A DNA stretch of 32,000 nt, taken from the NCBI GenBank assembly GCA_964589775.1, contig CAZPUN010000004.1, positions 9,737 to 41,736 of the forward strand. Direction: 5' to 3'. The notes under the pieces are model-generated. The model worked only from the letters and a program-made list of their open reading frames with translations. It was not told the origin of the DNA and did not search any database. Shown piece by piece: positions 27,060 through 28,686 of this stretch. A program made the translations under genes and the position numbers. Source of the DNA: an uncultured archaeon (GTDB lineage Archaea; Asgardarchaeota; Thorarchaeia; Thorarchaeales; CAZPUN01). Every line of letters starts with the position of its first letter. Positions within the stretch are counted from its first letter, which is position 1.

Positions 27060-28686
27060 CTTTAATTAGCCCCCTAGTCACAGTAATATAATAATCCGTC
27101 ATATCTGCTCTTACACGAGTATTTACGATTTTTACTTTTATCCCGTTTTTCTCAAGAGCTTCCACTGCTCTTTCTGCCATGATGTTTAATTGCTCATCTG
27201 TAAATACTTTCAATAATTCTCCGCGTTGTAGTACGAAGCGAACGCCTTCAAGTTTCTCAAGAATCTCAGCAGCGTTTGGATTTACATCTTTTAGAATAAT
27301 TCCTACCGCATATCCCTCTCTCGGTAATGAGCGTTTGAGTCTCTCAGGTGATCCAAACGAAACTAAGCTCTTACCTTTCAAAAATACTGCAACTTTATCA
27401 CAGAATTCTGCCTCTTGTGGATAATGAGTAACTACAATTAAACTAGTTCCATATTCTCTATTTATAAAATCCAGATAGTACCATAATTCATTTCTGTTAT
27501 CTGGATCTAAGCCACTTGTAGGTTCATCAAGAATTAATACCTTGGGCCTATGTACTAAACTAATAGCAATAGATACACGTCTTTGTTGTCCTCCTGATAA
27601 TGTTTTTACAGGATCGTCACCTTTATCTAGAATTCCAAAGTCGTTCAATAGTGTTTTTCCACGCCTTACAAGTTCCCATTCCGGTATATCATATTGTTTT
27701 CCAAATGCTACAATATTTTCCAAAGCTGTGAATGTATGGTACATATAGGATAAATCTTGAGGACAATATCCAAAGAAATATCGCACCTTACGAGATTGAG
27801 ATGAGTCAATACCTGCTATTCGCGCAATACCTTTTGATGGAATATCTCCAATGAGAGCTTTTATTAGAGTAGACTTTCCTGCTCCGCTCTCACCAATAAT
27901 TCCTAGAACTTCTCCTTCTTTCAGATTAAACGTGACGTTTTCGATTATTTTGTATCCCGAACTTGTTATTACGGAGAGATTTCGTACCTCGACAACGTTT
28001 CGATAAGTTGGTGCCTCTACAGATACAAAGGGCTGTATGTATAGTTTTTCGACAATTATATTATTTATGATGTTCTCTTTTGGTAGCCCTGCGAGTTTTT
28101 TCTCCGTCAGAATGTATACTCTCGGTGGTGTTCCTTCAGTACGAATTTCAATTAGTGGTTCCGGTAATATTGGTGCGAATTTTACATCCGTACCTACTAT
28201 TTCACCTTTTAGTGAAATTTCCATATTATCTAATGCACGTCTTCCCCAGACAGCTCCAATTGAATGTTTAATAAATCCTCTTTTATTAATAATTTTTACA
28301 GCTTCATCTAGTTCGCCTTTTGAAAAGAACATATCATCATATAGGTTTCGACGCATATAATTGAAAAGTGTAATTTGGGTAGCTTTAATATCTTCTGATG
28401 TTGTGTTTGGGCCCCCAACTGTAAGTATCTCATCTAATGGGTATTCCTTTTTTTTCCTAAGGTCTTCTTCAACAAGAATTGCGAATCTCTGTTTAAATAT
28501 GCTCTTTTTAATACTTACAATACGCCCTGTAAAATGAACTTTCTTATTGGTTCTTCTATCCTTTCCTTGAATTTCTGCATGGATCTCTCTATCGCTTCTC
28601 TCGGCACACCATTGAAGCGCATCTTCAAATCGTGCGCCTGTAAAATAGCTCTCTTCAACAAATTCCGGTCGTTTACTGCTGCTCAC
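27043..28686 (-). CDS. ABC transporter ATP-binding subunit with an N-terminal extension of about 225 aa (tandem TrmB sugar-binding-subdomain-like repeats)
   Basis: ATPase motifs GESGAGKST, YCPQ, LSGGQ, ILDEPT and THY. N-terminal region reads EIHAEIQGKDRRTNKKVHFTGRIV...LTVGGPNTTSEDIKATQITL. GTG start, with an AGGAGG RBS overlapping the permease stop. Confidence 0.9.
   Translation of the reverse strand: MSSSKRPEFVEESYFTGARFEDALQWCAERSDREIHAEIQGKDRRTNKKVHFTGRIVSIKKSIFKQRFAILVEEDLRKKKEYPLDEILTVGGPNTTSEDIKATQITLFNYMRRNLYDDMFFSKGELDEAVKIINKRGFIKHSIGAVWGRRALDNMEISLKGEIVGTDVKFAPILPEPLIEIRTEGTPPRVYILTEKKLAGLPKENIINNIIVEKLYIQPFVSVEAPTYRNVVEVRNLSVITSSGYKIIENVTFNLKEGEVLGIIGESGAGKSTLIKALIGDIPSKGIARIAGIDSSQSRKVRYFFGYCPQDLSYMYHTFTALENIVAFGKQYDIPEWELVRRGKTLLNDFGILDKGDDPVKTLSGGQQRRVSIAISLVHRPKVLILDEPTSGLDPDNRNELWYYLDFINREYGTSLIVVTHYPQEAEFCDKVAVFLKGKSLVSFGSPERLKRSLPREGYAVGIILKDVNPNAAEILEKLEGVRFVLQRGELLKVFTDEQLNIMAERAVEALEKNGIKVKIVNTRVRADMTDYYITVTRGLIKGVIEV

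Follow-up and report, generated by a model that had tools for sequence, protein, structure and literature searches.

Why should the ATPase of an ATP-binding cassette (ABC) exporter carry, at its N-terminus, two copies of a domain known from TrmB, a sugar-binding transcriptional regulator? The question is raised by a gene in a 32,000-nt stretch of DNA from an uncultured archaeon of the Thorarchaeales (Asgardarchaeota; GenBank assembly GCA_964589775.1, contig CAZPUN010000004.1, positions 9,737 to 41,736), here called the window. A first-pass annotation had recognized, within positions 28030-28665 (amino acids, aa, 8-219 of the 547-aa product), two units related to the TrmB effector-binding domain and had proposed that a sugar sensor was recruited onto an exporter-type ATPase. 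The gene product is a DrrA/ABC-2-type ABC ATPase with cytoplasmic, tandem units of the second TrmB subdomain. As to the role of these units, docking of the cytoplasmic tail of a surface protein encoded in the same operon has more support than sugar sensing, and we give roughly even odds (about 0.5) to the tandem barrels acting as a docking module through which ABC motor and surface protein are coupled. The gene and its parts, with the permease gene upstream, are as follows.

27043-28686, minus strand: fusion ATPase gene, 547 aa, GTG start (open reading frame call and translation)
28345-28665, minus strand: unit 1, aa 8-114, strand, helix and beta-barrel (Pfam PF11495, AlphaFold model, Foldseek, ESM Atlas)
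28609-28662, minus strand: aa 9-26 (FVEESYFTG...W26), first strand and helix of unit 1, predicted to hold the partner's tail together with N109 and M111; E11, F15 and W26 near-invariant family-wide
28390-28419, minus strand: VGGPNTTSED, aa 90-99, equivalent to TrmB 318-327 and spanning the contacts Gly320, Met321, Val324, Ile325 and Glu326
28015-28338, minus strand: unit 2, aa 117-224, degenerate second copy that has lost the GG motif (hhalign, VIA-align, alignment)
27337-27999, minus strand: ABC nucleotide-binding domain, aa 230-450 (Pfam ABC_tran, 106 bits; motifs in the sequence)
27046-27324, minus strand: DrrA/ABC-2-type C-terminal domain, aa 455-547 (NCBIfam drrA model)
28699-29862, minus strand: ABC-2 permease, 387 aa, upstream gene of the operon (Pfam ABC2_membrane_3, 87 bits; hydrophobic segments)

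The ATP-binding motifs of the fusion protein are canonical (Walker A GESGAGKST, signature LSGGQQRR, Walker B LILDEPTSGLD, H-loop VTHY), and the Pfam ABC_tran match of 106 bits covers aa 249-391. Its best NCBIfam model is drrA, which aligns aa 246-537 with model positions 7-301 of 302 and scores 196 bits, under the subfamily cut-off of 312. The gene starts 12 nt past the stop codon of the ABC-2 permease gene and overlaps the next gene by 17 nt. The model match and the neighboring permease bear out the assignment to the exporter type. The N-terminal extension comprises the first ~225 aa and consists of two tandem strand-helix-barrel units; both segments quoted in the first-pass annotation are present letter for letter in the translation.

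Modelling of this region with AlphaFold from 10 close sequences gave a predicted local distance difference test (pLDDT) score of 47 and an unusable model, whereas an alignment of 32 sequences gave a usable one (pLDDT 86.9, predicted template modelling score 0.80). In this model the units occupy aa 8-114 and 117-224, each beginning with a strand and a helix that lead into a barrel of five or six strands. The layout is that described for TrmB, where strand, helix and flattened barrel make up the second subdomain of the effector-binding domain (PMC4158304). The count of two units was thus right, while their limits had been drawn slightly too small, since a strand and a helix precede each barrel. 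A Foldseek search of the Protein Data Bank (PDB) placed TrmB first (3qph_A, E 1.9e-5, root-mean-square deviation, rmsd, 2.2 Å over 102 columns with 22% identity; 2f5t_X, E 2.9e-5), the next match lying at E 8e-3. VIA-align likewise gave TrmB Z scores of 13.1 and 12.7 against 7.1 for the next fold (rmsd 2.2 Å, 94 residues aligned). Because the Foldseek identities of 22-25% fit unit 1 and the VIA-align range, 58 to 224 at 15% identity, fits unit 2, we infer from the model that both units match the TrmB fold. The nearest clusters in the ESM Atlas are the family itself and TrmB regulators, with an rmsd of 1.4-2.1 Å over aa 9-111. Likeness to the Pelota N-domain, ribosomal protein L19, SAWADEE and the WYL/CapW barrel (Z 5-7) was taken as generic similarity among small barrels.

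Sequence comparison leads to the same regulator. Residues 30-107 of unit 1 match positions 162-230 of the 233 in Pfam Regulator_TrmB (PF11495) with E 3.5e-9 and 36.7 bits, above the cut-off of 22.2, and the same family matches all ten orthologous N-terminal regions scanned. With TrmB as the top match among solved structures, the homology claimed for the extension is upheld. A profile pooling both units found residues 257-335 of the TrmB chains 2f5t_X and 3qph_A weakly (E 0.014 and 0.027). Its alignment pairs V90-G91-G92-P93-N94-T95-T96-S97-E98-D99 with V318-G319-G320-M321-F322-A323-V324-I325-E326-D327 of TrmB, so that the VGG-x5-ED spacing of unit 1 equals that of the regulator; the TrmB sequence quoted in the first-pass annotation proved nearly exact when checked against the same chains. 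Neither phmmer with aa 1-235 nor a profile of unit 1 from close orthologues retrieved a TrmB chain from the PDB. The relation between the two units also emerges from diverse sequences: BLASTP of unit 1 against unit 2 gave no match and hhalign restricted to close orthologues gave a probability of 3.9%, but once 32 diverse family members were included, 78 columns of the two units could be aligned with a probability of 97% (E 2.9e-11). Divergent relatives moreover retain VGG in unit 2, and unit 2 (aa 135-196) of one of them, P0020, itself matches PF11495. These three observations make the tandem duplication real. Loss of the motif from unit 2, as had been noted, is true of the fusion ATPase and its own clade, and is clade-specific because the divergent relatives keep VGG there.

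Judging from these alignments, the extension is homologous to part of the TrmB effector-binding domain, yet the protein is not a TrmB regulator. It shares with TrmB of Thermococcus litoralis and Pyrococcus furiosus (PDB 2F5T, 3QPH) the strand-helix-flattened-barrel unit, the VGG-x5-ED spacing and, in unit 1, the equivalents of Gly320 and Glu326. It differs in lacking the winged-helix domain and the first subdomain, in having the unit in tandem at the N-terminus of an ABC ATPase, and in four of six sugar contacts that are not kept. The Pfam scan left positions 1-161 of PF11495, the first TrmB subdomain, unmatched in the fusion ATPase, and the AlphaFold model holds just the two strand-helix-barrel units; the winged-helix DNA-binding domain PF01978 was not found by Pfam at E <= 1. 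A search of 1.84 billion representative sequences with the family profile returned 22 proteins, and all full-length ones tested are ABC ATPases with the extension. Because no TrmB regulator is among the matches of that search, the barrels of the fusion ATPases form, by sequence, a branch of their own that has diverged from the regulators.

If the barrels no longer serve a regulator, what do they hold? The genes downstream of the fusion ATPase in the operon offer a candidate.

22872-27059, minus strand: giant S8 subtilase-like surface protein, 1395 aa, catalytically dead, product of a conserved partner gene (Pfam; alignment of catalytic residues)
23562-24062, minus strand: GIFT/GldG/ABC_transp_aux-like region, aa ~1000-1166 of the pseudo-subtilase (three weak Pfam families)
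22875-23177, minus strand: C-terminal part of the pseudo-subtilase, with membrane helix (aa 1295-1313) and a helical cytoplasmic tail of 82 aa (hydrophobicity; tail alignment)
21895-22872, minus strand: plain DrrA/GldA-like ABC ATPase, 325 aa, canonical motifs (sequence; NCBIfam)
15301-21891, minus strand: giant surface protein, 2196 aa, with signal peptide, beta-propeller, TSP3 repeats, one membrane helix and a ~120-aa cytoplasmic domain

The subtilase-like protein has a signal peptide, one membrane helix near its C-terminus and a cytoplasmic tail of ~70-82 aa. In all five lineages aligned (L004, L006, L008 and L009 among them) the nucleophile Ser is changed to Ala and the oxyanion Asn to Asp, and in two, the window's own and the Loki-type orthologue, the catalytic His is changed to Arg; the Asp is kept (window positions 25860-26650). 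On the strength of these replacements the giant subtilase is a conserved pseudo-protease. Three related Pfam families match weakly in one place, the GIFT/GldG/ABC_transp_aux-like region ahead of the membrane helix (E 0.04-0.1), and the Loki-type orthologue (L006:6285-11474) exceeds the cut-off of IFT52_GIFT with 30.3 against 27.2 bits. The set of four genes, fusion ATPase, one or two ABC-2 permeases, plain ATPase and pseudo-subtilase, is kept in five lineages despite altered order and orientation.

Fusion and pseudo-subtilase also travel together. Full-length matches to the region running from the GIFT-like domain through the membrane helix to the tail (E < 1e-40) are confined to families with the fusion; elsewhere the GIFT part alone matches, weakly. 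Within one family (f9) such matches occur only in the genus that carries the fusion (G040, G129, G147), with a partial one in a further genome of that genus (G180), where the fusion was not found. As read from two search tables, ~60 of 78 genomes have both genes on a single contig and no more than ~6 kb apart, and most of the genomes without close pairing have the genes at contig ends. The tail itself aligns without a gap in 19 orthologues of six families, its length being fixed.

The protein is otherwise extracellular, and a conserved tail in the cytoplasm calls for a partner there; a complex prediction was sought for this reason. The input was aa 1-228 of the fusion ATPase (32-row alignment) and the 82-aa tail (four rows). 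The prediction reached an interaction prediction score from aligned errors (ipSAE) of 0.72 (0.72, 0.72 and 0.73 in three runs), against 0.00 for the best of three controls. The ipSAE mark is reached by 58 of 80 solved complexes and by 2 of 110 mismatched pairs, counts that are rough as custom alignments were used. The three runs share at least 90% of their contacts, and the pLDDT of the partner is at least 78. On the ATPase side the predicted contacts are residues 9, 11-16, 18-19, 26, 109 and 111; on the tail side they form one helix face, tail residues 20-42. The predicted complex supports binding of the tail by the barrel without showing it.

The surface picked out in this way coincides in part with what the family conserves. 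Over the 32 sequences, the Loki-type branch included, the near-invariant residues are E11, F15, W26, R30, G41, G54, N109, G148 and G161. Four of these, E11 (31/32), F15 (30/32), W26 (31/32) and N109 (30/32), belong to the predicted contacts, and all four persist in the Loki-type branch, where the TrmB pocket motif is missing. For the overlap of the contact set with the 20 best-conserved positions, P is 0.014; conservation averages 0.61 over the contacts as against 0.44 over the domain. The positions equivalent to the TrmB pocket lie outside this surface, so that docking of the tail and binding of a ligand could co-exist.

In the arrangement that we favor, the tandem barrels would be a docking platform, and sugar sensing would not be their primary task. 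Unit 1 would use N109 together with its first strand and helix to grip an amphipathic helix of the pseudo-subtilase tail, and this grip would tie a single-pass surface protein to the ATPase of a transporter. The ATP cycle of the ABC-2 system and the extracellular GIFT/pseudo-protease module might then be coupled mechanically or regulate each other, in an overall arrangement like that of GldA/GldF/GldG with a physical link through the membrane. A small ligand could still occupy the retained GG...E pocket, which lies on another face of unit 1. A barrel-tail contact of this kind would mean that a ligand-binding fold had been turned into a protein-docking module, and would give a testable handle on ABC-2 systems associated with GIFT domains.

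Several points weigh against docking as the role of the barrels. The contact is a prediction, made for one lineage and with a tail alignment of four rows. Tail residues at the interface (0.47) show no higher conservation than the remaining tail (0.46). The hydrophobic residues F15 and W26 recur in unit 2, and their conservation may reflect packing and not binding; the predictor, besides, may take conservation as a cue, and the overlap with conserved positions is then not fully independent. In one family of five genomes (f7) the fusion and pseudo-subtilase genes are on separate contigs. The fusion ATPase also keeps G92 and E98, the pair universal in sugar-binding TrmB relatives.

A wider proposal builds on docking and seems to us rather unlikely to hold in full. 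It pictures an Asgard-specific trans-membrane machine whose ABC-2 motor grips the tail of the dead-subtilase/GIFT protein via the duplicated TrmB barrel, so that ATP-driven motion, possibly modulated by a metabolite at the GG...E pocket, would reach the surface, or events at the surface would be reported to the ATPase. If true, this would be a new wiring of an ABC transporter to a single-pass partner, and would assign a role to the GIFT-domain proteins of those archaea that are most closely related to eukaryotes; the GIFT/GldG-type domain family is common to IFT52 and a subunit of the eukaryotic oligosaccharyltransferase.

The alternative that survives best is ligand-gated transport, in which a cytoplasmic sugar or other metabolite at the GG...E pocket would tune the ATPase, as the accessory domains of MalK, MetN and ModC do. 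In TrmB the sugar is contacted by six residues of the second subdomain (Asn305, Gly320, Met321, Val324, Ile325, Glu326) and by Ser229 in the recognition helix of the first (PMC4158304); the barrels are homologous to the subdomain that provides six of the seven, whereas the subdomain with the recognition helix and Ser229 is absent. At the six positions unit 1 has A69, G92, P93, T96, S97 and E98. The equivalents of Asn305, Met321, Val324 and Ile325 are thus replaced by A, P, T and S, and those of Gly320 and Glu326 alone are kept, which are also the sole TrmB sugar contacts conserved in TrmBL1, Tgr and MalR (PMC4158304). The Glu326 position is E in eight of nine members of the mid-clade; in the Thor-type clade it is E in three, D in three and Q, A and T in one each. 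The GG is lost in unit 2 of the window's own clade and in both units of the Loki-type branch, and conservation of the six pocket-equivalent positions (0.39) is under the domain average of 0.44. Because the Glu326 position varies, GG is lost in places and pocket conservation is below average, the family appears not to treat a TrmB-type pocket as essential, the fusion ATPase keeping the minimal pair. What stands of the proposal that a sugar sensor was recruited is the homology to the sugar-contacting subdomain; the missing first subdomain, the four changed contacts, the variable Glu and the absence of GG from the Loki-type branch speak against the rest. Going by the retained pair, it is possible that unit 1 binds a sugar or other ligand, at a pocket whose separation from the predicted tail surface makes it compatible with docking. 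Ligand gating as the role of the barrels is, in our estimate, unlikely; if the pocket did bind sugar, it would provide an uncommon instance of an exporter gated by a metabolite.

Somewhat less probable still is that the barrels serve another partner (the plain ATPase, the permease, the cytoplasmic domain of the TSP3 giant or each other), or have an architectural role in fixing how the members of a heterodimeric ATPase pair are placed. Genes for two distinct ATPases always occur together, a second surface giant whose cytoplasmic domain looks folded comes with the Thor-type operon, and unit 2 has invariant positions of its own (W147, G148, G161, P172). Against this, clusters of the Loki type and others have both units but no TSP3 giant, and it is the contact with the pseudo-subtilase tail that passed its controls. 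Least probable, and quite unlikely in our view, is recognition of the substrate, with the barrels reading the sugar of a lipid-linked or polymeric glycan moved by the ABC-2 exporter as in Wzt: the exporter-type ATPase and permease (DrrA/ABC-2), the homology of the barrels to a glucosyl-binding subdomain and the GIFT-like domain of the partner, from a family linked to glycosylation, would suit it, but pocket conservation is as poor for this purpose as for ligand gating, the conserved four-gene set has no glycosyltransferase or polymer-synthesis genes, and no Wzt-type domain is among the fold matches listed.

Comparison with known systems places docking by the tandem barrels in context. By analogy, the extension would work most like the accessory domains of the ABC ATPases MalK, MetN, ModC and Wzt, and would differ from them in fold, position and tandem form. 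The TOBE-like domain of MalK, the C2 domain of MetN and the corresponding part of ModC are cytoplasmic accessory domains, C-terminal and found in importers. The likeness lies in an extra cytoplasmic domain on the nucleotide-binding subunit, able to bind a ligand or partner and to tune transport. Their domains, however, are C-terminal, of other folds and part of importers; here the addition is N-terminal, tandem and of TrmB type, on an exporter ATPase that keeps its DrrA C-terminal domain. No TOBE family was found in the fusion ATPase by Pfam at E <= 1, nor among the fold matches listed. Cuthbertson et al. are said to have described, in 2007, a carbohydrate-binding domain on Wzt, the ATPase of an O-antigen exporter. 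Like the fusion protein, Wzt is an exporter-type ABC-2 ATPase fused to a cytoplasmic domain of sugar-binding ancestry, but its domain is C-terminal and of another fold, and the present system has no polysaccharide synthesis genes. New with respect to these accessory domains is a TrmB sugar barrel freed from the regulator, duplicated and placed N-terminally on an exporter-type ATPase, in a form confined to Asgard archaea.

The module as a whole resembles the gliding-associated GldA/GldF/GldG transporter of Bacteroidota, which also comprises a DrrA/GldA-like ATPase, an ABC-2 permease and, encoded alongside, a membrane-anchored partner of the GldG/GIFT type. It departs from this transporter in having the GIFT-type domain within a dead subtilase of 1400-1700 aa with a cytoplasmic tail, and in having two ATPases, one with TrmB-type barrels. 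The GldA model scores 110 bits with the fusion ATPase and 154 bits with the plain one, against a cut-off of 402.6. On these sequence scores, with no model reaching its curated cut-off, this is a likeness and not membership.

How widespread is the fusion? Proteins of the family carry source names of Thorarchaeota and of Promethearchaeota or Promethearchaeia. In a sample of 201 genomes from the window's phylum (Asgardarchaeota), 81 have a match, and 78 hold a single full-length frame of 540-830 aa without stops. Recurrence of one unbroken frame in 78 genomes rules out an artefact of gene fusion or assembly. The fusion is a single-copy gene in several Asgard lineages and is concentrated in a few families (43/44, 17/19, 6/6, 5/5, 3/3 and 3/40 genomes); the profile search of 1.84 billion representatives did not find it outside Asgard archaea. 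The first-pass annotation knew of no description of such a fusion, and we found no paper describing it in the literature searched, though automatic Pfam strings already record PF00005+PF11495 on fusion proteins and a 127-member cluster of the ESM Atlas bears the same flag.

Parts of the extension, or of TrmB, were also seen by themselves. Standalone open reading frames of ~150-170 aa match a single barrel unit, resembling unit 2 in some Thor-type genomes and unit 1 in one other family without the full fusion. The source genome itself has two more PF11495 matches, in frames of 250 and 1093 aa, that cover the first TrmB subdomain only (profile positions 2-135); both TrmB subdomains thus occur separately in this organism, since these two matches cover the first alone.

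G152:C8:66551-66865, G120:C66:1988-2293, G155:C64:41960-42265, G069:C21:9792-10088, G053:C53:10879-11175, G044:C184:3322-3615 and G061:C18:6084-6377: standalone single-unit open reading frames
G000:C35:12039-12434 (L002) and G000:C12:12891-13265 (L003): PF11495 matches to the first subdomain

The TSP3 giant is part of the operon in the Thor-type clade only. Its C-terminus (window positions 15301-15660, minus strand) has a membrane helix at aa 2057-2075 followed by the ~120-aa domain, which shows a weak likeness to DUF2393. The giant and the pseudo-subtilase were both considered as a missing second permease and ruled out, each having a signal peptide and one membrane helix only. Farther away, genes for a GH38 alpha-mannosidase and a galactokinase-like GHMP kinase lie ~20 kb from the fusion ATPase gene (window positions 4254-8325, minus strand). 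A second genome of the Thor type also has the mannosidase gene, ~10 kb upstream (L004:1-783); such synteny, limited to the clade, does not establish a connection with the transporter. At the Loki-type locus (L006:14510-16304) the cluster is a few kb from genes for endosomal sorting complex required for transport II (EAP30, ESCRT-II) and for Vps4, which is probably a matter of neighborhood only.

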